Assembly: GCA_964509855.1 (NCBI GenBank)
Contig: CAZDZP010000002.1
Span: forward strand, 1 to 31,543
Direction: 5' to 3'
DNA from: an uncultured Anaerolineaceae bacterium
Lineage (GTDB): Bacteria > Chloroflexota > Dehalococcoidia > Tepidiformales > Tepidiformaceae
DNA: 31,543 nucleotides
How positions within the stretch are numbered: position 1 is the stretch's first letter; each line of letters starts with the position of its first letter. The notes under the pieces are model-generated. The model searched no databases, was not told where the DNA came from, and saw only the letters and a program-made list of their open reading frames with translations. Of the stretch, positions 11,779-29,755 are shown piece by piece. The translations under genes were made by a program, and so were the position numbers.

Positions 11779-12135
11779 ATGGCCGCAATGTGGAGCGTGA
11801 TTTTCTACACCGTGCTGGCAGTTGCCGCGTTCTATTTCATCCTGCTCCAACCTGTGTTGAAGCAGCAGAAGGAACAGCGCAAAGCCGTGCGCGAACTGCA
11901 GATTGGCGATGAAGTCGTCACCGCTGGTGGACTGATCGCTGAGGTCGTGGACGTCGTCACGCCTGTTGACGGCCCGACAGAAATTATCCTTCAACTGGCG
12001 CCGGAGATACGCGTGCGGGCTACAACCGCCGCCGTGACCAAGCGCTTAAGCACCCTTGTGGTGGAAGATGACGAAGAAGTGTCGACTTCACAAGCCACCA
12101 CGCGCGATAAACCCGCAGAACCAGGAATTTCGTGA
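11779..12135 (+). CDS. yajC: preprotein translocase subunit YajC
   Basis: N-terminal TM helix, then QPVLKQQKEQRKAVRELQIGDEVVTAGGLIAEV; directly upstream of secDF. Confidence 0.9.
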   Translation: MAAMWSVIFYTVLAVAAFYFILLQPVLKQQKEQRKAVRELQIGDEVVTAGGLIAEVVDVVTPVDGPTEIILQLAPEIRVRATTAAVTKRLSTLVVEDDEEVSTSQATTRDKPAEPGIS

Positions 12136-14531
12136 GAAGAGCCTCTACCCTCGTCATCTTCGTCGGCGTCCTTGTGCTTACCGTCTTTGCCGTTGTGGCG
12201 GTGTGGCCGAGCTACCCCCAGCGCTACCTGCCGGGTGACTTCTGGCCTTCGGGCAATGGCATCAAGATTGGTGATTTTGAGCGCGAAACCATGCGGCTCG
12301 GACTCGATCTGCAGGGCGGCACGCGAATGGTGCTCGAGGCCAACCCACCGGCCGACTTCGAGGGCGACCTGAACGAAGCCCTGGAAACTGCTGCCGAGGT
12401 CATTGAGCGGCGCGTCAACGAATTCGGCGTTAGCGAATCCGAGGTTTCCGTGGCGAGCGGCAACCGCATTGTCGTGCAGGTCCCGGGCCTTTCGCTCGAG
12501 GATACTGAGCGGCTAATCGGTGCGACTGCCCAGTTGGAATTCAGAACGCTCGATCAATTCGGAGAGGTGGTGCCGGCCACCGGAGTTGTCGACGGTCAAA
12601 CGATCCAAATGACCGGCCAATTCCTGCGCAGCAACAGCTTCCCAACGCGCGCGGGTACGACGTTCGCGGTGAACTTCGAGACTACGGGCGTCGGCTCCCA
12701 ACTCATGGGGCAAATCACGACTCGCGCCATCTTCGACGAAGAAGGGCGAGAGCGTAGCCAGCTGGATCCCCAGCGCCAGCTGCTCGTGTACCTGGACGAT
12801 GTGCTGATTTCGCAGGCGACCGTCCAGGGGGTCATCACCGATTCCGGGAGCATCACTGGCCAGGAAAGCTTCACGGCGTCTCGTGACCTTTCGCGCCAGC
12901 TCAACGCCGGCGCTTTGCCGGTGCCGCTTCAGACCATCCAGTCGAGTGAGGTCTCGGCGACACTCGGCGAAGACTCGGTGAAGGCAACGGTACGCGCTGG
13001 TGAAGTGGGCCTCATCGCGGTCGCTATCTTCATGATCCTGATGTACCGGCTGCCGGGCGTGCTCGCGACTGCGGCGCTCTTTATCTACACCTTCCTCGTG
13101 CTCGCCGTGTTCAAGCTCTGGCCGGTCACGCTCACGCTTTCCGGCATTGCCGCCTTCATCCTGTCGGTGGGCATGGCCGTGGACGCCAACATCCTGATCT
13201 TCGAACGGATGAAGGAAGAGTTGCGGCGTGGCCGAACGCTGAACACAGCCGTTGACCTCGGGTTCCGCAACGCATGGAGTTCTATTCGCGACTCCAACGT
13301 ATCGACGCTCATCACCTGTCTCATCCTCTACTGGTTCGGCGACCAGTTCGGCGCGGCCCCGGTGAAGGGATTCGCACTCACCCTCGCCATCGGCGTATCC
13401 ATCAGCATGTTTTCGGCCATCACGATCACCCGCACTTTCCTAAAGATGCTGGTGGGCACACGAGTGGCACGAAACAGCTGGCTCTTCAACGCCGAGGAGC
13501 GCAAGGGCGGCACGACGCATGCCGGCGGCGGCCTGATCAATTTTGCCAAAGCGCGCTTCGTCACACTTGGCATTTCCGCCATCGTCGTGATCGGAGCCAT
13601 CGTCATCCTCGCGATTCCGCCAACGCTGAAGGGCGGCATTGAGTTCACTTCTGGTTCTGTCTTCACCATCCGTTTCACCGAACAATCGGTGGAACAACCG
13701 GTGCTGCGGCAATACATGGGCGAAATCGGGTACCCGGAGGCACGCGTCCAGGGTTCTGGCGACAATAGCTACGTCATCCGCACGCGGGAGCTTGATGGCG
13801 CACCGCCGCTCGGAAGCGACCCCGGACCGCAACCCACGGGCGAAATCGACACCATCACGTCCCAATTGCAGGAGCGCTTTGGAAGCCTCGTCCGCGATGA
13901 CTTCCAGACCGTTTCGGGCACTGTTTCTTCGGAAATCGCTCGCTACGCGACCCTGGCGGTGATCGGCGCTGCCATCGCCATCTTTGGCTATATTTGGCTG
14001 CAGTTCCGCAACGTTCCCAACGCGACTCGATACAGCGCTGCTGCGGTGATCGCGCTTTTGCACGACACACTGATCGTGCTGGGCCTGTTCTCACTCCTTG
14101 GGAAGGTTGCCGGGACAGAAGTCGACACGGCCTTCTTGACCGCAGTCCTCACAGTGATTGGCTTCTCCGTTCACGACACGATTGTGGTGTTCGACCGGAT
14201 ACGCGAGAAGCTGCAGAACGACGCCTACCTGCCGCTGGAAGAGGCTGTCAACGCCAGCCTGACGGAAACGCTTAGCCGCTCGTTGACGACGTCCCTCACG
14301 CTCATCCTGACGGTGCTTGCGCTGCTCCTTATTGGCGGCGCCACTATCCAGAACTTCCTCATCGTGCTGCTGGTTGGCGTCATCGCGGGGACCTACTCCA
14401 GCGTTGGCGTAGCGGCGCAGCTGCTGGTGGTGTGGGACCGGGGTGAGATGGGGCGGATTTTCGGCCGGGGAAAGCGCGAGGCCGGCCCCGCCGAGCGCAC
14501 TGCCCCCATGGAACCCGCCACCGAGGTTTAG
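12132..14531 (+). CDS. secDF: fused protein translocase subunit SecDF
   Basis: LGLDLQGG, VIERRVNEFGVSE, LNAGALPVP, SATLG, GMAVDANILIFERMKEE (SecD half); GIEFTSG, GFSVHDTIVVFDRIRE, SLTETLSRS, GTYSS (SecF half) in a single ORF. Confidence 0.95.
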   Translation: MRRASTLVIFVGVLVLTVFAVVAVWPSYPQRYLPGDFWPSGNGIKIGDFERETMRLGLDLQGGTRMVLEANPPADFEGDLNEALETAAEVIERRVNEFGVSESEVSVASGNRIVVQVPGLSLEDTERLIGATAQLEFRTLDQFGEVVPATGVVDGQTIQMTGQFLRSNSFPTRAGTTFAVNFETTGVGSQLMGQITTRAIFDEEGRERSQLDPQRQLLVYLDDVLISQATVQGVITDSGSITGQESFTASRDLSRQLNAGALPVPLQTIQSSEVSATLGEDSVKATVRAGEVGLIAVAIFMILMYRLPGVLATAALFIYTFLVLAVFKLWPVTLTLSGIAAFILSVGMAVDANILIFERMKEELRRGRTLNTAVDLGFRNAWSSIRDSNVSTLITCLILYWFGDQFGAAPVKGFALTLAIGVSISMFSAITITRTFLKMLVGTRVARNSWLFNAEERKGGTTHAGGGLINFAKARFVTLGISAIVVIGAIVILAIPPTLKGGIEFTSGSVFTIRFTEQSVEQPVLRQYMGEIGYPEARVQGSGDNSYVIRTRELDGAPPLGSDPGPQPTGEIDTITSQLQERFGSLVRDDFQTVSGTVSSEIARYATLAVIGAAIAIFGYIWLQFRNVPNATRYSAAAVIALLHDTLIVLGLFSLLGKVAGTEVDTAFLTAVLTVIGFSVHDTIVVFDRIREKLQNDAYLPLEEAVNASLTETLSRSLTTSLTLILTVLALLLIGGATIQNFLIVLLVGVIAGTYSSVGVAAQLLVVWDRGEMGRIFGRGKREAGPAERTAPMEPATEV

Positions 14532-16378
14532 CGTTCAGCGCGCAGCACGCGCGCATCGCCAACCCGCCTGGTGACTCTTTGTGCGTCCAGGTGTTCCAGA
14601 AACGCCTGGACGTACTTGCGACTGGAGCCCAGCAGGTCGCGCGTCTCGGCGAGACTAATGGACCCGTGCTCCTCAATATGCGCCCGTACTTTAGCCGTCA
14701 TCCCGGCGTAGACATCGGCGTCGAACACGACCCCGCCGCCCACATCCACCACCAGTCCACGGTGGGCGAGCAGCGCGACGAGCGCTGGTTCCGGGGATAG
14801 TTCCGCGGGAGGGCTGGTCCCCCCGGCCCTGATTGCCGCGAGGAAGGCGTCCGCTTCCCGCTGCTGGGCTGGCGAGAGCACCACGGTGTAGCCGGCCACA
14901 CCAAGCCCGGCACCGGCGTTCACGAGACTTCTGCTGGCAACGGCATGCTGCACCACCATCTCAAACACAGCCGTTTCCAGCCCCACGGAACTGCGAACGT
15001 GTTCACGCGGTGCAAGTTCGCGGAGCGAATTCTGTTCCAGGTAAAGCGAAATTGCGGTGAGGATGCGGCGCGCCTGGTTTTCAAGCCACTCCTTGCTACT
15101 CAGCATCGTCTCCGTGAGCCACGCTGCCCGGTCGCTCTCGACCAATTCGTTGGCCAATGACTGAAGCTCACGCGTCTCCACGCCGAGCCGCTCCGACAGG
15201 CGTGCAAGCGTCGTGGGGCCGACCGCCAATTCGTCGAGCATGCGCTCCGCCGGCGATCCCTCCAGCCGGAGCGCGAGCGCTTCGAGCGTGGGCACGTGGT
15301 TGCGGCGATGGCGGGGCGGCGAGAGGGCAACGATGGGACCGCCTCCAACGGTGTCGTTGGTCGTACGAATCACGTAGTGGTCACGCGCCAGCACAGCGAC
15401 GGGCGTTTCCAATACGACCTGCGCCCAGGCCACATCCCCGGGCAGCAACTCCGCGCGGTCGAGGAGACGGAGGGTGCCCTGCGCTTCGGCGGTGGCGCTG
15501 AGGAAGGTGATGCCAGCGTTGTCGCTCACGGCGTGGGGGAGCAGTTTCGTGGCTCGAAGCCGCACATCCATGGCCCGGACAGGCTTGATGGCGCCGGGCC
15601 TGGCGAGCACCATGCCACGCTCAATGTCGTCGGCGTGGACACCGCTGAGATTGACGGCCGCGCGGGTGCCTGGCTCCAGCCGTTGAACCTTCTCCTTGTG
15701 GCGTTGCAGGCCACGTATTCGCGCGCGCAAGCGGCCCGGTTGCAGTTCGACGTCCTGGCCAACTTCGAGGGCGCCGTCGACTAGGGTGCCGGTGACCACC
15801 GTACCGAAGCCCTGGATGGTAAAGGCGCGGTCGATGGGCATGCGGGGCCGACCGAGATCGCGCTTCGGCGGCGTGGTGTCGAGGGCGGCATCGATAGCGG
15901 TGAGGAGCGCCGGGATGCCGTCGCCGGTCGAGGCGGAGACGCGCGCTATCGGGGCCCCTTCAAGCCGTGAGCCCTTGAGCACGTCTTCGAGTTCCGCTTC
16001 GACGAGGTCGATGTATTCGGACTCAACGAGGTCGGTCTTTGTTATGACGACGAGACCGGCGGGCACATCCAAGAGATCGAGGATTGCGAGGTGCTCGTGG
16101 GTTTGCGGCATCGGGCCCTCGTCGGCGGCGACGATGAGCAGCGCGAGGTCGACGCCCCCGGCTCCGGCGAGCATGTTCTTGATGAAGCGCTCGTGCCCGG
16201 GCACGTCCACGATGGAGACGTCGCGTCCCGAAGGGAGGGCGAGCCACGCGAAGCCGATGTCGATGGTGAGCCCTCGCTCTTTTTCTTCGCGCAGACGATC
16301 GGGATCGATACCCGTGAGCGCTTTCACGAGGGTCGACTTGCCGTGATCGACGTGGCCAGCGGTTCCGATGACGAACAA
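14528..16378 (-). CDS. selB: selenocysteine-specific elongation factor
   Basis: [64 protein letters not shown] and C-terminal winged-helix [13 protein letters not shown]...RVGDAR; TTG start. Confidence 0.95.
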
Positions 16379-21918: not shown

Positions 21919-22475
21919 TGGGCCCGTCACCGGCCGACTTGGCCAGGTACGCGCCGCGGGATCCCGCAGGCGTTGTCGAACTGAACATTAACGATCACTG
22001 GCGTGCCAAGTGGATAGCCGATTCCGAGCTTCCCGAACACGCGCCCGTGATGACTGCATACGCGATGGTGTTTCGCGGCGAGCGCGCTTATGTCACACGC
22101 GAGCATGGCGAGGACCGCTGGAGCATCATCGAAGGTGACCTGGGCGAGAGTGAGTCGGCTGAGGACTTCGTCGTTCGCGCCGCCTTTGAGCGGACCGGGG
22201 CAAAGGTCACCAAGACCGAGCTCTTCGGCTTTTTCGAATGCAAGGCCACCAGCCAGAATCCGCAGTTCCCCGTGGGAACGATAACAGTTCAGCCGTTCTA
22301 CATCGCTTCGGCGAGCGACGTTGAAGACGTGCCGGATGAGTCAGGTTATGAACGGCGACGGCTGCCGCTGAATGAGTTCAACAAACTGATTCGTGCACGC
22401 TACCCCCAGTCCGACCTGTACCTGCAGCAGGGTACGCAGCGCTACACGGTCATGTTGGCGCGCGGCGAAGTCTAA
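21915..22475 (+). CDS. Nudix-fold protein with degenerate Nudix box
   Basis: WSIIEG-DLGES-E-SAEDFVV-RAAFERTG follows the GX5EX7REUXEEXGU spacing but lacks the key glutamates. ATGA overlap with the upstream gene. Confidence 0.65.
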   Translation: MMGPSPADLARYAPRDPAGVVELNINDHWRAKWIADSELPEHAPVMTAYAMVFRGERAYVTREHGEDRWSIIEGDLGESESAEDFVVRAAFERTGAKVTKTELFGFFECKATSQNPQFPVGTITVQPFYIASASDVEDVPDESGYERRRLPLNEFNKLIRARYPQSDLYLQQGTQRYTVMLARGEV

Positions 22476-23113
22476 GAACCCGGGGCTATCGCATAGGTCA
22501 CGGTGACGTCGCAGGTGACGGCCGTTGTGCCTGCCTCAATGGGCGTCGCCTGCTGCGACTCCATCTTCATCGCCATTGCATGCAGCATCGGTTGCGGCCC
22601 GGCTGGCTGTCCTTCGGTGATGGCAACCGGCAGCCCTAACGACACGCCTGCGTGCGAGGCGAGTTGAGCCGCTTTGGCCGCAGCATCGCCGATGGCAAGA
22701 CGGCGCGCTTCTTCCTCGGCCGCACGAGGGTCCGACACGGAGAATTGGAGCCCGTTGAGCATGACGGCGTCACCGCCCGCTTCCAGGGCACCGTCAACGA
22801 CCCCGCCGAGTTTCGCGACGTCACGAACGACCACGTGGACGATATTGGACACGTCGTACCCCAACAGCTTTTGGCCACCGTCGTGGGAGTAGTCGTAGCG
22901 GGGGCCAACGGAAAGCTGGCTTGTACGGATGTCGGCATCAGCAACGTTCTGCGATTTGATGTTCGCGATCAGTTTGCTGGCGGCCCCCGCCGCGCGGTCG
23001 CGGGCCTCGGCGACGGAACGTGCGCTGGCCTGCACGCCGATGTTCAACATGGCGATATCCGGTACGACCTGTACCTCGCCGCGCCCGGTGACCGTGATTC
23101 CCTGTTCCTGCAT
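22472..23113 (-). CDS. SIMPL-domain (DUF541/YggE-like) protein
   Basis: ITVTGRGEVQVVPDIAMLNIGVQ, DIRTSQLSVGPRYDY, GYDVSNIV, AIGDAAAKAAQLA, PIEAGTTAVTCDVTVTY. Confidence 0.9.
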   Translation of the reverse strand: MQEQGITVTGRGEVQVVPDIAMLNIGVQASARSVAEARDRAAGAASKLIANIKSQNVADADIRTSQLSVGPRYDYSHDGGQKLLGYDVSNIVHVVVRDVAKLGGVVDGALEAGGDAVMLNGLQFSVSDPRAAEEEARRLAIGDAAAKAAQLASHAGVSLGLPVAITEGQPAGPQPMLHAMAMKMESQQATPIEAGTTAVTCDVTVTYAIAPGS

Positions 23114-23136
23114 GTTGAGAAGATAGCCCCCCGGGG

Positions 23137-23829
23137 TCAGAGGCGCTGGGCGCGCTGAACCTGGTGCCGCGATACGGCCCATGCCACCACCGCTAGAGCG
23201 AACACACCCCCGAGCGCCGAGTAAACCGGCAGCAAGGAATTGGGCGAGCTTTCAGTGGCGCTGCGATGCGATTCGAGCGCCGAGATTGGCGACGCCTCGT
23301 CGACGAGTTCCTTACCGTCGCCTGCGTCGTATGCCGGGGGTTCCTCACCACCCTCGGCGGAACCGGCCATTGTGCCGGCAGCCTCTCCGCCGTCGTCGCT
23401 GGTGGTGCGCATGTCGTCGCCTTCGGCCTGGGTTTCGAGCGAAGCCATGTTGGCGCCGCCGTTATCTCCGTCGGTCGTCGTACCGACCGTATCGAAGGCG
23501 AACACAATGCCGAACGCGGCGATGGCGGCGAAGGATGTGGCCTGGGCGAGGCGCATCGTGACGGCAGGCGCGCGGGAGGGCTTCGGCGCCGGTTCGGCGA
23601 CCATCGCCGGGGTGAGTGCGAAGGAACGGGGAGTGGCGAATTCGGGCATCTCGCCAAGCGCGGACTTGAGCGACTTCGTGTTGCGAAGCAGTTCGGCGAC
23701 GCTCTCGGACTCTTCGACGCGATCTTCCAGCAGTTCCCGTTCAACGGGCGTGAGGCGATGGTCGACATAGGCATCCACCTGTCGAGCCCACCGGTCATTG
23801 CGCCTGAAGATCTTCGGGAAACGCATCAC
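23137..23829 (-). CDS. putative membrane-bound anti-sigma factor (zf-HC2-like N-terminus without Zn ligands, two predicted TM helices)
   Basis: Lies directly downstream of the ECF sigma gene. N-terminal VDAYVDHRLTPVERELLE, then PRSFALTP, a hydrophobic helix, an acidic loop and a second hydrophobic helix. Confidence 0.75.
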   Translation of the reverse strand: MMRFPKIFRRNDRWARQVDAYVDHRLTPVERELLEDRVEESESVAELLRNTKSLKSALGEMPEFATPRSFALTPAMVAEPAPKPSRAPAVTMRLAQATSFAAIAAFGIVFAFDTVGTTTDGDNGGANMASLETQAEGDDMRTTSDDGGEAAGTMAGSAEGGEEPPAYDAGDGKELVDEASPISALESHRSATESSPNSLLPVYSALGGVFALAVVAWAVSRHQVQRAQRL

Positions 23830-23837
23830 AATTCCTT

Positions 23838-24446
23838 TCAGCTATCCAGACGTTCGCGGGCGCCGAAAAGTTCCGGGTTTCTGCGAATGAGTTCACGCAG
23901 CCGCTCACGGCCGCGATGAATGCGGGACTTAATGGTACCGGTAGAGGTTTCGCAGATGCTGGCCACCTCGTCGTAGGAGTAGCCGTGGATGTCGACCAGG
24001 ACGATTGCGCGGCGCTGATCGAAGGGCAATTCCAACAGTGCGTCCTGCAATGCGCGGCTTAACGCGGCGCGTTCCACACGGGCTTCTGAAGATTCAGTTT
24101 GGTCCGGCACCTCAACAGGAGCCCCAAGTGTGTCGAATAACTCATCTAGAGAGCTTGCGCGATCCTTGCGCTGCGCTCGACGGAGGGCATCCTTGCTGTG
24201 GTTAGCCGCAATGCGGAATAGCCAGGCGCGGAAATTGCCACCTTCGAAGCGCGCAAGGGCACGATAGGCCGAAAGAAAGGTTTCCTGCGTCGCGTCTTCA
24301 GCGGATTGCCGGTTGCCAAGCAGGCGGAGCGAGAGGTTGAACACCGCAACCTGGTAGCGTTCGACAAGGCTGTTGAAGGAAGCGAGATTGCCGTTCCTGG
24401 CTTGCTGAATGAGGTCCTCATCGGGCGGTTGTCCCTGTGGATCCAC
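23838..24446 (-). CDS. ECF (sigma-70 group 4) RNA polymerase sigma factor
   Basis: Region 2 AEDATQETFLSAYRAL...FRAWLFRIAAN; region 4 LPFDQRRAIVLVDIHGYSYDEVA...GTIKSRIHRGRERL. Confidence 0.93.
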   Translation of the reverse strand: MDPQGQPPDEDLIQQARNGNLASFNSLVERYQVAVFNLSLRLLGNRQSAEDATQETFLSAYRALARFEGGNFRAWLFRIAANHSKDALRRAQRKDRASSLDELFDTLGAPVEVPDQTESSEARVERAALSRALQDALLELPFDQRRAIVLVDIHGYSYDEVASICETSTGTIKSRIHRGRERLRELIRRNPELFGARERLDS

Positions 24447-24523
24447 GGCGGCGAGAGTAGGTCAATCGGCTGTAAAGCGCGACTAATGGGAACCGGGTGC
24501 GACCCGGAGGCTGTGATACCCTG

Positions 24524-27500
24524 ATGGCAATGGACCAGGGAGGCGAACGCCTCGACGAGGCATTCGAAGACGACCACGACGCCACGCAGGACTGGTACTT
24601 TGACCTGCCCAGCGGAGCATGGGAAAGACAAGAAGAGAAGAACCGCCAGCTGCGCGCGAATCTCCTTGGTCACACCACCAAAGACACCGACACGCCGAAG
24701 GACCCCTTTACCGGGCAGCCGGTGAAGGGTGGTGGTTTCCTTGGCCGAGGGCGCAAGAAGGACAAGCCGGTCGAAGGATCGAAAAAGCCGGTCTTCGAAC
24801 GCCGGGGTAGCGACGATGAACGCGTGTCGCGTTTCCGCGCTCTCCGCGAAGGAAGTGCCCCCGAGGGCGACAGCTGGTCGACAGAGCCGAAAGCCATCGA
24901 CGAGAACGCGCCGCTGCTGCGCAACCGCCTGAGCGCTGGCGATGAGCCGCCCGCAGCATCCCCCAAGGGCGAATCGCGCTGGGACCAGCTGTTTGGTGCG
25001 CCCGCCGACAGCGGCAGCATCGTCGACGGGATGCGCAACTGGGCCACGAGTCCGAATGATGCCGACGAAGACGCCGCCGAAGATCCAGGCGCGGAGAGCA
25101 CCGCCGAACCAGTAGATGCAGTAAACACGGCTGAAGAAGCAGTCGACGCGGACACCGAGGAGAGCCTTATCGGTGCGATGCGCAACTGGGCGACGGCGCC
25201 TGCGGACGAGCATGCCCCGGATTTCGAAAAGCCCGGTTTCGAACAAGAACCCGAAGTCGAAGACGAATGGGCGGTGGTAGCGCCGTCGAATCTTGTCGAC
25301 GGCGATGTTGAACCCGCGACAGAACCCGTTAGCGTCGTCGCCGAGAGCGACCTCTCCGTGGCGGACGACGCCGCGGAATCGCTCATGGAACGTATCCGCA
25401 ACCGAGCCCGCGTCCAGGCCGAACTCGACGCTGTTCCGAGTAGTGCCGATACCGAGGACCAGTCCGAAGAAGACGTGGTTGCAATCGGGGCTGATTCATC
25501 GGCCACCGCTCTCGTTCAGGATGAGTCTGAGTACGTCGAAGCGCCGGCCGCCGAGTTAGTCGCCAGTGCCGATGATGATGAAGCCACGCGGGACCCCGAC
25601 GAGAGCCCGCTGGAAGGGCTCCGTGCGTGGGCAATGAACCGCCCATCCAGGGCCCGGTTCGCAACAGCTGAAACTACCGTTGAGGAAACCCCCGATGCGG
25701 TTTCCGGCGGCGACGACAAGGCTTCTTCAATCGACGACGTTGTGCCCGCCGCAGAGGATGTCAACAGTCCGATCGAGGTCGAAGCGGACGACAACGAGTG
25801 GAGCGCTGTCGATGTCGATGTCGACAGTGGCGCCGAGTACTCCGAAACGAAGGCTCAAGCGGAAAGCGCAAGCGCACTGGCGCGATTCACTGCTGCGCAA
25901 ACCCCAGTCGAGGATGCTGTCGGCTCTCAGGAAGAACGCGAAGACACGGCGGAGAGTGAACCCCAGGCCAAAAAGCCAGGAATCCTCGGGCGGCTGTTCG
26001 GCCGCAAGCCCAAGCCAGACCCGGCAGAGGCAGCCGGCGCCGCCGCGATTAGCGCAGCCGCATGGCTGGAAGACGAGGATCCGGGTTGGGGCATGAGCCG
26101 CTCAGCGGCCACCGGCGCCAACCTGAACGCACAGGAATCCGAATGGGAGCCGGTCGAGCATGCCGAAGGCACGTCGGCCGACGGTAAGGATTCCGGTACT
26201 CCGGTTGTCTCAGCTTTTGCGGCCGAAACGATTTCGGACATCCCGGAGACGTCCGTGCCCTCGTTCCCCGCAAGCAACGATTCGACCACCGGGAACGCCT
26301 CGCCATGGGCTTCCTCGGACATGGCGACGCAGAACGACTCCTTCGGATGGAGCGCCACTCCGGCCGGGAATGAAGCCGCCGTGCCCGAGCCAGCGGAAGA
26401 AGAGGCTGTCGCGTCCGCACCCGTTGAGGATGACGACGAGGACGCTCCCACCTGGGCTGCCCCCGACATGGCCGCCAGCAACGACTCCTTCGGGTGGTCC
26501 AAGCCAGCTGAGGAAGAGGCCAGCGCCTCCGCGCCCGTTGAGGACGAGGCTCCGCATTGGGTCGCCCCCGACATGGCTTCCAGCAACGACTCCTTCGGAT
26601 GGTCCAAGCCAGCCGAGGAAGTAGCTGTCGCTTCAGCGCTCGTTGAAGATGAAGCTGAGGACGTCCCCACCTGGGCTGCCCCTGACATGGCCGCCAGCAA
26701 CGATTCCTTCGGGTGGTCCAAGCCAGCCGAGGAAGAGGCCGGCGCTTCCGCACCCGTTGAGGACGAGGCTCCGCACTGGGCTGCCCCTGACATGGCCGCC
26801 AGCAACGATTCTTTTGGCTGGTCCGCGACGACCGAGGAAGAGTCCGACGCGTCCGCACCTGTGGAGGATGAGGCTCCGCACTGGGCTGTCCCTGACATGG
26901 CCGCCAGCAACGATTCCTTCGGATGGTCCAAGCCAGCCGAGGAAGAGGTCGGCGCCTCCGCGCCCGTTGAGGATGGGGCTCCGCATTGGGCTGCCCCCGA
27001 CATGGCTGCCAGCAACGATTCCTTTGGCTGGTCTAATCCAGCCGAGGAAGAAGCTGTCGCTTCAGCGCTCGTTGAAGATGACGACGAGGACTCTCCAAGC
27101 TGGGTCGCCCCAGACATGGCCGCCAGCAACGATTCCTTTGGCTGGTCGAAGCCAGCCGAGGAAGAAGCTGTCGCTTCAGCGCTCGTTGAAGATGAAGCTG
27201 AGGATGTCCCCACCTGGGCTGCCCCTGACATGGCCGCCAGCAACGATTCTTTTGGCTGGTCCGCGACGACCGAGGAAGAGGTCGGTGCGTCCGCGCCCGT
27301 TGAGGATGAGGCGCCGCATTGGGCTGCCCCTGACATGGCAGCGAGCAACGATTCTTTTGGCTGGTCCGCGACGACCGAGGAAGAGGTCGGTGCGTCCGCG
27401 CCCGTTGAGGATGAGGCGCCGCATTGGGCTGCCCCTGACATGGCAGCGAGCAACGACTCCTTCGGGTGGTCCGCGCCGACCGAAGAAGAGGCGCTCGCCG

Positions 27501-29755
27501 AGGCGTTGGACGAAGAACAACTGGTTGCAGATTCCGCCGTCGACGATGAAGAACCGGCGTGGTCGTTCGCCCGGCCTTCGCACGAAGAAGAGCGGTCCGG
27601 GGAAGAGGCCGATGCTTCCGCACCCGTTGAGAATGGGGCTCCACACTGGGCTGTTACCGACATGGCCGCCAGCAACGACTCGTTTGGCTGGTCCGCTGCC
27701 CAAACGGAGGACGAGGCGCTGGCTGAAGCCCTTGAGGACGAGATGCCGTTGCCCGATTCGGCCAGCATCTTCCCGTGGATGGCAACAGCACTGAGCGACG
27801 ACGCGCAGGGCCTCATTGAGAACCAGGAAGTGGCCAGCATCGAGCCGGGCGAAGCATTCAGCGAACAGGCCGCCTTCTCGCCGCTTTCGGAACAACCAAC
27901 AGAAAGTGCGCCCGAAGCGGTAACCTTCGAAGCGATGCTACCCGCTGATGACGACGCCGACGACGAATCCCAGCCTTGGGCTGCAGCTGCGATCGCCGAA
28001 AACCACGAGGCCGCAAGAGTCGATGACGGCGGTGACGAGTGGGAACCAGAGCAGGACGATGGCGTAGAGCCGGCGCCAGCAGTACCAGCCTTCGAAGCAT
28101 CGATTGCGACGCCGCAGGAATCTCCGGTGGATGACGAAGAGTCCGAATGGGATCCCGAGGGCCTGGACGAGGAACCCGTTGTCCCGGCCCCGGCTCCGGT
28201 TGCGCTGTCCACCGAACCGGTCGCAGCCTCCGCCGCAGTCGAGTTCGAAGTCGAATCAGATGACGACTCAGTTTCGCTGGACTGGGATTGGGAATCGCAG
28301 GAAGAGGGCGAGGCCAACGACGTGGTCCCCGACTGGCAGATGCAGGCTCCTCGAGAGTCCGAACCCGCCGCCGAACCGGCCCAGCTTGGTTTCGCCTTCC
28401 CGGGCGCGGGCGCCCTGGAAACGGACGAAGAGCCAGACCTCGACGCGGAAGGCCCAGTGGAGGCAACCGACCCCTCGACCAATCCTGGCGAGTTCGCTGA
28501 GGGGAGCGACTGGGAATCGGTAGCTGCCATCACGGCGGCACCCGGCGCCGCCTCACTCGAAGACGAGCAGGACGAAGAGCCAGACCTCTGGGCCGCCATC
28601 GCAGAAGAAGCTGCCCTGGAGGGCGAAGCGGGCGAAAGCCTCGTCGACGCTCCCCATGCAACCGTGTTTGGCCAGTACGGCACCCGCAGAAGCGCAAGTG
28701 AACTCCACGCTGAGTACGACCAACAGTTCGTCCCGATAGAAGCGGAAGACGGCGACATGGAAGAAGACGTGGTCCTCCGCGCTTTCGAAGCCCATGCCGC
28801 TTCCGAAGAAAACGATGGCGACGACAAGAACGAAGCCTTCGACGAATTGCTTGGCGAACACGCAGATGTTGTCGACGACGAAGAGGGGCCCGCCCCACGC
28901 GGCGGTGTCGCTCCCGTTGGTTTCGGAAGCTGGGCACCGCCTCGTGCAGTCAACGCTTTCGATGAGACCAGCGACGAATGGGAACCGGAGTCCCAACCCG
29001 TAGCCGTCGGCGCCGCCGCCCCTGCCGGTTCGGCCGAGCGCGAGTACACAAGCTACGTCGGCGACGGGTCCTCATCCGCTGCTGACGCGGCTGCAAAGCG
29101 GGCGAGTTCGCGAACCTGGGTGCGAGAACTGGTGGAGACCGGCCTGCTCGCTATCCTCGTGTTCCTCGCCGTTCGAGCCAGTTTCCAAAACTTCAAAGTC
29201 GACGGCAGCTCCATGGCGCCGACGCTTGCCGATGGCCAGTTCCTCATCGTCAACAAGTTGGTCTACAGCGAAGTGGATGTGGAAAAGCTCGGCAAGTACC
29301 TCCCGTTCGTGAGCGCTGGTGACGACCCGACCCGGCACGTCTTCCACGGACCCGAACGCGGCGACATCATCGTGCTGCGTGACCCGAGCAACCCCAGCGT
29401 GGACCTTATCAAGCGAGTCGTTGGCATGCCGGGTGACAAGCTCGAAATCGTGGACGGCGCCGTGTATATCGACGACTTCCGGCTGGAGGAGCCGTACATC
29501 AAATCGGAATGGCGGGGCAATCGCCCGGCCGTGATAGTTCCCGAAGGTCACTTTTTCGTGATGGGTGACAACCGGGACAACAGCAAGGACAGCCGAAGCA
29601 GCTCGATCGGCTTCATACCGGAAGACCTGATCATCGGGCGGGCCGAGTTCTCGTATCTGCCCTTCGACCGCTTCGGGCGCGCGCCAAATGAAACACCGAG
29701 CCTTTCCGAAACGGACGGGCGGCCGGTGCTGACGTCGCAACGTTTGGAACGCTAG
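24524..29755 (+). CDS. lepB: signal peptidase I with a ~1,530-aa acidic, repeat-containing N-terminal extension (start 24524 or 24530)
   Basis: Single uninterrupted ORF. TM segment begins ~29117 (WVRELVETGLLAILVFLAV), followed by box B DGSSMAPTL (Ser 29210-29212), RGDIIV, box D LIKRVVGMPGD (Lys 29411-29413) and box E FVMGDNRDNSKDSR. Confidence 0.9.
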   Translation: MAMDQGGERLDEAFEDDHDATQDWYFDLPSGAWERQEEKNRQLRANLLGHTTKDTDTPKDPFTGQPVKGGGFLGRGRKKDKPVEGSKKPVFERRGSDDERVSRFRALREGSAPEGDSWSTEPKAIDENAPLLRNRLSAGDEPPAASPKGESRWDQLFGAPADSGSIVDGMRNWATSPNDADEDAAEDPGAESTAEPVDAVNTAEEAVDADTEESLIGAMRNWATAPADEHAPDFEKPGFEQEPEVEDEWAVVAPSNLVDGDVEPATEPVSVVAESDLSVADDAAESLMERIRNRARVQAELDAVPSSADTEDQSEEDVVAIGADSSATALVQDESEYVEAPAAELVASADDDEATRDPDESPLEGLRAWAMNRPSRARFATAETTVEETPDAVSGGDDKASSIDDVVPAAEDVNSPIEVEADDNEWSAVDVDVDSGAEYSETKAQAESASALARFTAAQTPVEDAVGSQEEREDTAESEPQAKKPGILGRLFGRKPKPDPAEAAGAAAISAAAWLEDEDPGWGMSRSAATGANLNAQESEWEPVEHAEGTSADGKDSGTPVVSAFAAETISDIPETSVPSFPASNDSTTGNASPWASSDMATQNDSFGWSATPAGNEAAVPEPAEEEAVASAPVEDDDEDAPTWAAPDMAASNDSFGWSKPAEEEASASAPVEDEAPHWVAPDMASSNDSFGWSKPAEEVAVASALVEDEAEDVPTWAAPDMAASNDSFGWSKPAEEEAGASAPVEDEAPHWAAPDMAASNDSFGWSATTEEESDASAPVEDEAPHWAVPDMAASNDSFGWSKPAEEEVGASAPVEDGAPHWAAPDMAASNDSFGWSNPAEEEAVASALVEDDDEDSPSWVAPDMAASNDSFGWSKPAEEEAVASALVEDEAEDVPTWAAPDMAASNDSFGWSATTEEEVGASAPVEDEAPHWAAPDMAASNDSFGWSATTEEEVGASAPVEDEAPHWAAPDMAASNDSFGWSAPTEEEALAEALDEEQLVADSAVDDEEPAWSFARPSHEEERSGEEADASAPVENGAPHWAVTDMAASNDSFGWSAAQTEDEALAEALEDEMPLPDSASIFPWMATALSDDAQGLIENQEVASIEPGEAFSEQAAFSPLSEQPTESAPEAVTFEAMLPADDDADDESQPWAAAAIAENHEAARVDDGGDEWEPEQDDGVEPAPAVPAFEASIATPQESPVDDEESEWDPEGLDEEPVVPAPAPVALSTEPVAASAAVEFEVESDDDSVSLDWDWESQEEGEANDVVPDWQMQAPRESEPAAEPAQLGFAFPGAGALETDEEPDLDAEGPVEATDPSTNPGEFAEGSDWESVAAITAAPGAASLEDEQDEEPDLWAAIAEEAALEGEAGESLVDAPHATVFGQYGTRRSASELHAEYDQQFVPIEAEDGDMEEDVVLRAFEAHAASEENDGDDKNEAFDELLGEHADVVDDEEGPAPRGGVAPVGFGSWAPPRAVNAFDETSDEWEPESQPVAVGAAAPAGSAEREYTSYVGDGSSSAADAAAKRASSRTWVRELVETGLLAILVFLAVRASFQNFKVDGSSMAPTLADGQFLIVNKLVYSEVDVEKLGKYLPFVSAGDDPTRHVFHGPERGDIIVLRDPSNPSVDLIKRVVGMPGDKLEIVDGAVYIDDFRLEEPYIKSEWRGNRPAVIVPEGHFFVMGDNRDNSKDSRSSSIGFIPEDLIIGRAEFSYLPFDRFGRAPNETPSLSETDGRPVLTSQRLER
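26306..27694 (+). repeat. intragenic coding tandem repeat: 12 copies of W(A/V)(A/V)PDMAASNDSFGWS-like cores, mostly at 105/114-bp period
   Basis: Core Trp codons at 26306, 26453, 26558, 26672, 26777, 26882, 26987, 27101, 27215, 27320, 27425 and 27647; every spacing is a multiple of 3. Confidence 0.97.

Follow-up and report, generated by a model that had tools for sequence, protein, structure and literature searches.

The window analyzed here, a 31,543-nucleotide stretch of DNA (contig CAZDZP010000002.1 of assembly GCA_964509855.1) from an uncultured member of the Tepidiformaceae, carries a tandem array of tryptophan-bracketed repeats that lies within the cytoplasmic arm of a giant signal peptidase I, a context which an earlier note made from the sequence alone (here termed the initial annotation) had left out. 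The array is best regarded as a local variant of an undescribed, family-wide feature, namely, the giant acidic arm of the Tepidiformaceae signal peptidase I. Because selection preserves two short motifs in each repeat, it is tentatively proposed, with a probability of roughly 0.45, that the array constitutes a string of multivalent docking sites, in which exposed aromatic motifs are presented by a disordered, polyanionic, membrane-tethered cytoplasmic arm. The features of the gene on which this proposal rests are listed below.

24497 to 29755, forward strand: whole gene of the giant signal peptidase I (ORF [open reading frame] list and translation).
24590 to 24655, forward strand: N-terminal motif DWYFDLPSGAWERQEEKNRQLR, the opening of the arm in all orthologs (seen in 26 complete orthologs).
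25970 to 26014, forward strand: basic amphipathic island KKPGILGRLFGRKPK, kept in orthologs.
26306 to 27694, forward strand: repeat array with 12 cores of the form W-x3-DMA-x2-NDSFGWS (pattern scan and Tandem Repeats Finder).
27215 to 27424, forward strand: sole pair of units to have arisen by recent duplication (two synonymous changes in 105 nucleotides).
27425 to 27646, forward strand: irregular unit of 74 amino acids with an extra aromatic site, PAWSFARP, and the place of the variant junction 27602>27425.
29117 to 29185, forward strand: single predicted transmembrane anchor WVRELVETGLLAILVFLAVRASF, preceded by Lys and Arg residues (Kyte-Doolittle hydropathy).
29126 to 29656, forward strand: signal peptidase I (S26) catalytic domain (PF10502 and TIGR02227).

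A regular-expression scan of the translation with the pattern W-x3-[DS]MA-x2-NDSFGWS returned exactly 12 cores of 16 residues (48 nucleotides) each, which start at nucleotides 26306, 26453, 26558, 26672, 26777, 26882, 26987, 27101, 27215, 27320, 27425, and 27647. Across positions 26388 to 27491, Tandem Repeats Finder reported a period of 105 nucleotides (9.6 copies, score 1079) together with a higher-order period of 219 nucleotides (5.1 copies, score 1190). The regular units fall into three classes of three members each, comprising 35-amino-acid units with a KPAEEE linker, 35-amino-acid units with an ATTEEE linker, and 38-amino-acid units, and two further units are irregular, the first being 49 and the eleventh 74 amino acids long. 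Each 35-amino-acid unit contains 8 Asp/Glu residues and at most one Lys. Only 2 of 105 nucleotides distinguish the unit at 27215 from that at 27320, and the encoded peptides are identical; both changes are, therefore, synonymous. The other 35-amino-acid units are 7 to 20 of 105 nucleotides apart. The initial description of the array, including its twelve repeats, coordinates, linker classes, unit lengths, acidic content, and near-identical pair of units, was thus borne out in every detail checked. In each regular unit, the core is followed by a variable segment, an ASA(P/L)VED island, and a second variable segment. As this island is invariant within the linkers, the linker is not a featureless spacer.

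The two-island organization of the unit is reflected in the pattern of substitution among the units. The 16-codon core displayed a synonymous difference (pS) of 0.45 and a nonsynonymous difference (pN) of 0.02 (pN/pS, 0.05), and the ASA(P/L)VED island displayed a pN/pS of 0.06, compared with 0.55 for the eight codons following the core and 0.30 for the unit tail, these ratios from Nei-Gojobori counts among units being descriptive, as the pairwise counts are not independent. Synonymous divergence was alike over all segments of the unit (pS, 0.39 to 0.74), and the columns that vary in amino acid numbered 3 of 16 in the core versus 11 of 22 in the linker (Fisher P = 0.09). Gene conversion or recent duplication would have erased synonymous differences as well; because pS in the linker equals that of the core, neither process accounts for the conservation of the core, which reflects purifying selection on the protein beyond the age of the duplications. 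The strong purifying selection in the forward frame also identifies this frame as the translated one. An ORF of 1040 codons on the opposite strand, spanning the array (25927 to 29049, reverse strand), was not retained as a gene candidate, since sense codons rich in GAx and GCx, together with selection on the sense frame, explain its presence.

Two claims of the initial annotation require revision in the light of these data. The array had been described as recently expanded, a claim which does not stand; most units are old, the pair at 27215 and 27320 is the only recent one, and a hot-spring relative possesses colinear units of approximately 86 to 96% identity. The linkers had been viewed as acidic spacers, and acidic they are, but they also hold a second island that is as constrained as the core itself.

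The ORF which harbors the array extends over 1752 codons from GTG 24497, as deduced from the ORF list and translation. The likely start of the giant gene is, however, ATG 24524, upstream of which a GGAGG sequence is located (24506 to 24510); the database record of the identical protein begins at this ATG and comprises 1743 amino acids. Pfam and NCBIfam recognize the last 210 residues only, as a signal peptidase I domain, with scores of 149.8 bits against PF10502 (cut-off, 22.9) and 143 bits against TIGR02227 (cut-off, 47). The catalytic boxes B (GSSMAPT, with the Ser), D (DLIKRV, with the Lys), and E (GDNRDNSKDSR) are invariant across seven orthologs. By these sequence measures the S26 domain is intact, and signal peptide cleavage is the predicted activity of the giant protein.

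A single hydrophobic segment was detected, at residues 1545 to 1563, with a Kyte-Doolittle value of 1.96, the next window reaching 1.01 (19-residue windows, threshold of 1.6), and Lys and Arg residues are located on its N-terminal side. Given the positive-inside rule and the requirement that the catalytic domain face outward, the approximately 1,530 residues that precede the anchor are predicted to be cytoplasmic. An extracellular arm was considered and ruled out, as the protein has no signal peptide, only the one hydrophobic segment, and Lys/Arg on the N-terminal side of that segment. The N-terminal half of the arm also contains a motif of the form M/L-R-x-W-A at 25031 to 25045, 25178 to 25192, and 25619 to 25633 (MRNWA twice and LRAWA once); this motif occurs in multiple copies in orthologs too, and in L013/G014 it is found within a 95-amino-acid repeat.

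The arm is strongly acidic, with Asp/Glu accounting for 24.9% and Lys/Arg for 4.4% of its residues, a net charge of -311, and a net charge per residue of -0.23. It contains 48 Trp residues (3.2%), 43 of which lie within four residues of an Asp or Glu, and the array region itself is 24.6% Asp/Glu. The arm falls on the disordered side of the Uversky charge-hydropathy boundary, and a single-sequence AlphaFold2 (AF2) model of residues 590 to 1075 returned a mean predicted local distance difference test (pLDDT) score of 39.5 with no secondary structure, an output which agrees with disorder rather than proving it. The array and the arm are, therefore, apparently unfolded.

Database searches beyond the family bear on whether the repeats might instead form a folded domain, such as a degenerate ankyrin-like solenoid. 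Word-indexed protein searches, in which the array was covered either as residues 600 to 1070 within the full-length protein or by residues 640 to 1000 alone, retrieved nothing but the protein of the window itself. When 1.84 billion representative proteins were searched exhaustively with HMMER, one match was obtained, a eukaryote-like ankyrin-repeat protein with a 33-amino-acid period (E value of 2e-6, 29% identity, seven stretches), the letters in common being ND..GW and G.SAPV.E. This match is the chief argument for a solenoid, but its score accumulates over periodic stretches, a situation that exaggerates chance similarity, and neither ankyrin nor any other Pfam family, repeat families included, matched the arm at E values of up to 0.1. 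Moreover, the array is approximately 25% Asp/Glu and 9% Pro and is without the hydrophobic core of an ankyrin repeat, and its model, at a pLDDT of 39.5, contains no helices. The ankyrin-repeat match was, therefore, judged an artefact of periodicity rather than a true relative, and a folded repeat domain is considered very improbable. The search of protein databases with the core motif thus revealed no true relative. A feature search of the ESM Atlas gave no usable match, a PDB sequence search gave only a chance match to a major histocompatibility complex protein (E value of 0.075), and a scan of metagenome contigs with the full core pattern gave no match; a looser pattern, M-A..N-D-[SA]-F-G-W, returned 71 isolated hits, scattered and compatible with chance, none of which formed an array. 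In the literature searched, no description was found of a signal peptidase with such an arm, nor of acidic tandem repeats of relevance in Chloroflexota.

Attachment of the arm to the membrane is predicted at two points, the transmembrane anchor and the basic island KKPGILGRLFGRKPK, which is conserved in orthologs as K-K-x-G-L-L/F-x-R-L-F-G-R-K-K. The island bears what we take to be a resemblance to the C-terminal membrane-targeting sequence of MinD and, by this analogy, is a probable membrane-targeting helix. If it does bind the membrane, the repeat array would be located in a loop tethered at both ends. It is envisaged that this loop of approximately 1,000 residues, between the MinD-like motif and the transmembrane helix, would hold the array near the inner face of the membrane, beside the peptidase, while its acidic segments would keep the chain expanded and the Trp and Phe residues exposed. 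The 12 or more cores could then offer multivalent, individually weak contacts to a partner of basic or hydrophobic character at the site of secretion. Candidate partners include signal peptides or preproteins, with their basic n-region and hydrophobic core, and basic surfaces of SecA, YidC, or the ribosome. Signal peptides are an attractive candidate, since the substrates of the enzyme present basic and hydrophobic parts on the cytoplasmic face; any single named partner is nevertheless far less probable than docking in general.

The same arrangement could be viewed as a means of stitching the arm to the membrane interface, whereby Trp pairs would insert into the head-group region and form a charged carpet around the peptidase with no protein partner. 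Trp favors membrane interfaces, Trp/Phe pairs are what the arrays of different genera have in common, and the array lies between two putative membrane attachment points, all of which is compatible with such a role. Cores embedded in approximately 25% Asp/Glu should, however, repel anionic bilayers and be costly at the interface, and the non-aromatic core residues (P, D, M, S, N, D, S, and G) and ASAPVED are equally invariant, which a simple anchor leaves unexplained. Stitching without a protein partner is, on balance, improbable.

The initial annotation had also raised the possibility that the core acts as a multivalent binding motif or condensate "sticker", and the acidic content and disordered appearance of the array, the latter resting on the AF2 model, would fit aromatic stickers on acidic spacers. 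In a condensate scaffold, aromatic stickers would drive phase separation of the arm at the membrane, which would involve polycations or basic proteins and yield a complex coacervate, a notion favored by the sticker-and-spacer architecture, the high valency, and the apparently disordered chain. The net charge per residue, however, disfavors homotypic association, and such a scaffold overlaps with the docking proposal to the extent that sequence does not distinguish the two; as a separate explanation, it is given a low probability, below that of interface stitching.

Relatives of the giant peptidase belong to the Tepidiformaceae/Tepidiformales (Chloroflexota, Dehalococcoidia), the cultured Tepidiforma flava included. 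The N-terminal arm motif WYFDLP.GAWERQ..KNR.LR was present in 17 of 25 sampled genomes of the family and in none of 375 genomes representing 87 other families of the class; as judged from this distribution, the arm is a family-specific innovation of the Tepidiformaceae. At the 26 loci with a complete 5' end, the motif is located 605 to 1791 residues ahead of the catalytic Ser. Further short motifs conserved in the arm are M/L-R-x-W-A, LLKPFDWE, DDPWAAI..ASGY, VVLRAFEAHAA, and GWAPQR. Seven near-complete Tepidiformaceae genomes of genus g45 (G114 to G129) gave no match to the N-terminal motif query, and in this genus the arm may have been lost or have strongly diverged. Approximately 30 of 80 ortholog contigs stop within the arm, as expected if repeats in this region commonly break assemblies. 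The giant gene provides the sole strong S26 match in both G009, which is 98% complete, and G012, and, as judged from G009, the giant form may represent the main peptidase.

At least 12 orthologs, among them that of T. flava and those of metagenome-assembled genomes (MAGs) built from long reads, possess tandem arrays with a period of 31 to 36 amino acids downstream of the amphipathic motif; in the long-read MAGs, the equivalent arrays are intact ORFs. The commonest unit, EKPWWEQPA...PVEAVASV(D/E)..., is present in 12 to 23 copies, and units of this type were found in T. flava and in seven MAGs, one of which is the long-read assembly of "Candidatus Amarobacter glycogenicus". In T. flava (L055; NZ_CP115149, approximately 1794463 to 1800000), approximately 13 units of the form EEPRPWWEASEAE...EEAVASA were identified, and masked bases interrupt the arm in the stored copy. 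Other unit types in relatives include DGW.PFNETFE, EPWEPFG, NAWFEAD, and SDAPVWSW, and the closest relative by N-terminal sequence, P0005, has a shorter Trp-bracketed core, WATPAAFSW (DDPWATPAAFSWP). The feature conserved across genera is an aromatic pair in an acidic setting at a pitch of approximately 35 residues (PWWE, W.PF, WF, and WATPAAFSW) and not one particular sequence.

Arm length (approximately 600 to 1800 amino acids) and sequence vary widely among orthologs and composition is kept (17 to 30% Asp/Glu, Trp-rich), arrays turn over between genera, and the net charge of the arm is large, features which would suit a bulk polyelectrolyte brush, whose length and charge might create an entropic or electrostatic exclusion zone, sense curvature, or buffer cations, with the repeats as a cheap route to arm growth. 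Such a brush predicts relaxed constraint, yet each unit of the window array retains two islands at a pN/pS of approximately 0.05 despite approximately 45% synonymous divergence. The same two-island pattern is seen in another genus, in L040, where the EAVASVD island has a pN/pS of 0.05, KPWWEQPA has 0.17, and the remainder of the unit has 0.51. A brush that depends on bulk properties is, therefore, doubtful as an explanation for the array.

The NDxFGWS core itself was detected in 2 of 124 family genomes (34 genera), namely, the window genome (G000) and G015. The G015 cores read MARNDAFGWS and VARNDAFTWGS and are set among unrelated linkers (E value of 2.5e-21). A possible N-glycosylation sequon, N-D-S in the window core, was dropped from consideration, since the G015 core reads N-D-A. 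Within its repeat arrays, the G015 ortholog (L015; G015:C2:121500-129000) is distributed across three or more reading frames, which may reflect indel errors of a long-read assembly or real frameshifts, and it holds at least two array types in series, NDAFGWS and SDAPVWSW. A phylogeny of the conserved C-terminal region placed G000 together with G009, L023, G008, and L021 (support, 100/99), all of which are without the NDxFGWS core, and G015 is positioned elsewhere on an unresolved backbone and is not a sister of G000.

Several observations weigh against the docking proposal. The NDxFGWS type has a scattered phylogenetic distribution, being absent from the nearest relatives, G009 and G008, a pattern which may be due to loss, transfer, or convergence. 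A hidden Markov model of PWWEQ-type units fails to detect the window array, with negative scores no better than those of shuffled controls. The window and PWWEQ arrays appear equivalent in position, period, composition, and selection pattern, but their homology is not demonstrable. That the core sequence differs between genera fits a generic physicochemical role at least equally well. The case for disorder consists of one single-sequence AF2 model together with composition. Finally, a short S26 paralog is also encoded by some family members, namely, G015 and T. flava, the latter carrying it elsewhere in its genome, and the giant form may consequently be specialized rather than housekeeping in function.

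The reliability of the array was assessed by comparison with assembled contigs of sequencing runs. The genome is a 471-contig short-read MAG that is 77% complete at approximately 7x depth, derived from a single metagenome assembly, and the stromatolite metagenome run X1, which holds 91% of sampled words, is the probable source run. Source-run contigs are split into pieces of 107 to 152 nucleotides inside the array, none of the independent assembled contigs spans it in full, and a rival junction was found which leads from 27602 back to 27425 with an additional 23 nucleotides, in frame, and which would add one long unit of 67 amino acids. Together with the ortholog contigs that end in the arm, these properties could be taken to signal an assembly artefact or a noncoding repeat. 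However, the independently built contig pieces of the source run are, without exception, identical to the window, diverged, colinear copies of the array are present in runs from three other studies (the pieces from the hot-spring run being those of approximately 86 to 96% identity), and the frame is open for 1752 codons under strong purifying selection; intact equivalent arrays in long-read MAGs point the same way. An artefactual or noncoding origin is, therefore, barely credible, and the array is real and also present in related populations.

Exactly how many units the array comprises in this organism, and in which order, is not firmly established, given that no contig bridges it and that the rival junction would add a further unit. 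This junction, 27602>27425, was observed in X1 (depth of 3.7), X2, X3, and X5, which comprise the source run and runs of three other studies (of hot spring and sediments), and one sediment run contains a 12-kb contig with the units in a different order. Some variation in copy number or order between populations is, therefore, likely, which lends partial support to the initial suggestion of a copy-number-variable array.

Upstream of the giant gene, three genes are encoded on the opposite strand, as follows.

23838 to 24446, reverse strand: divergent gene for an extracytoplasmic function (ECF) sigma factor (Pfam).
23137 to 23829, reverse strand: putative anti-sigma factor with two transmembrane segments and no Pfam match.
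22472 to 23182, reverse strand: SIMPL/DUF541 protein (Pfam).

The divergent ECF sigma factor gene adjoins the giant peptidase gene in 25 of 26 complete ortholog loci, and SIMPL and phosphoribosyltransferase genes are mostly syntenic among these loci too. The conserved gene order of the sigma factor suggests co-regulation or a functional link with the giant peptidase. Elsewhere, the window encodes a fused SecDF of 799 amino acids (12132 to 14531, forward strand) and the selenocysteine elongation factor SelB (14528 to 16378, reverse strand), from which it may be deduced that the organism probably uses selenocysteine.

Few bacterial membrane enzymes have been studied as thoroughly as signal peptidase I, the cytoplasmic portion of which is usually insignificant; in an entire family, it is here extended by 600 to 1,800 residues of a polyanionic chain that is studded with Trp and bears repeats. 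Should the arrays serve to bind substrates or secretion factors, they would represent a new way of organizing protein export and, if the docking proposal is true, a rare bacterial multivalent linear-motif scaffold that evolves through array turnover. A more far-reaching version of this proposal, which we regard as unlikely but worth stating, is that the Tepidiformaceae signal peptidase I serves as a secretion-site scaffold, the arrays of which capture signal peptides or the delivery machinery and concentrate substrates, possibly in a membrane-bound condensate, with the motif arrays evolving by rapid birth and death. If true, it would be a bacterial secretion-site organizer of a kind not described before. 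Cultured Tepidiforma strains with sister PWWEQ arrays make the idea experimentally accessible.

Among known systems, the closest counterpart of the C-terminal 210 residues is type I signal peptidase (LepB/SipS, MEROPS S26A), with which they share a regular S26 domain and its Ser and Lys boxes, and the single N-in transmembrane anchor before this domain resembles that of the SipS-type enzymes of Gram-positive bacteria. In the known enzymes, however, the anchor follows a cytoplasmic stretch of between a few and a few dozen residues, whereas here this stretch comprises approximately 1,530, which are acidic, Trp-rich, and repeat-bearing. Within the family, the EKPWWEQ...EAVASV arrays are alike in residing in the same gene, in their position between the amphipathic motif and the transmembrane segment, and in their 31- to 36-amino-acid period, selection pattern, and organization into two islands, which there are an aromatic pair and an island of the A-V-A-S type; they differ in that the two Trp residues are adjacent there and 13 residues apart in the window core, and common descent of the two unit types is unproven.

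The A-domain of FtsY and the C-terminal scaffold of RNase E are disordered extensions of membrane-associated enzymes that carry amphipathic membrane-binding and short linear motifs, and the FtsY extension is acidic as well and belongs to the secretion pathway. These extensions differ from the present arm in being without tandem aromatic arrays, in their unrelated sequence and other catalytic partners, and, for FtsY, in being 5 to 10 times shorter. In eukaryotes and archaea, Trp/Phe motifs exposed by acidic disordered linkers are known from ribosomal P-stalk tails, the DPW and WxxF endocytic motifs, the GW repeats of GW182, and acidic activation domains. An Argonaute hook of the GW182 type is ruled out here, because no Piwi-domain protein (PF02171) was found in four family genomes, G000 (77% complete), G015, G009, and T. 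flava, under a search in which control genomes gave hits. By analogy with these systems, many-fold repetition would increase avidity or the local concentration. Arrays of linear motifs within disordered regions are thus already known as a general kind, and the present array has no sequence relation to these examples; what is unexpected is the host protein, as the array is bacterial and fused to a signal peptidase.

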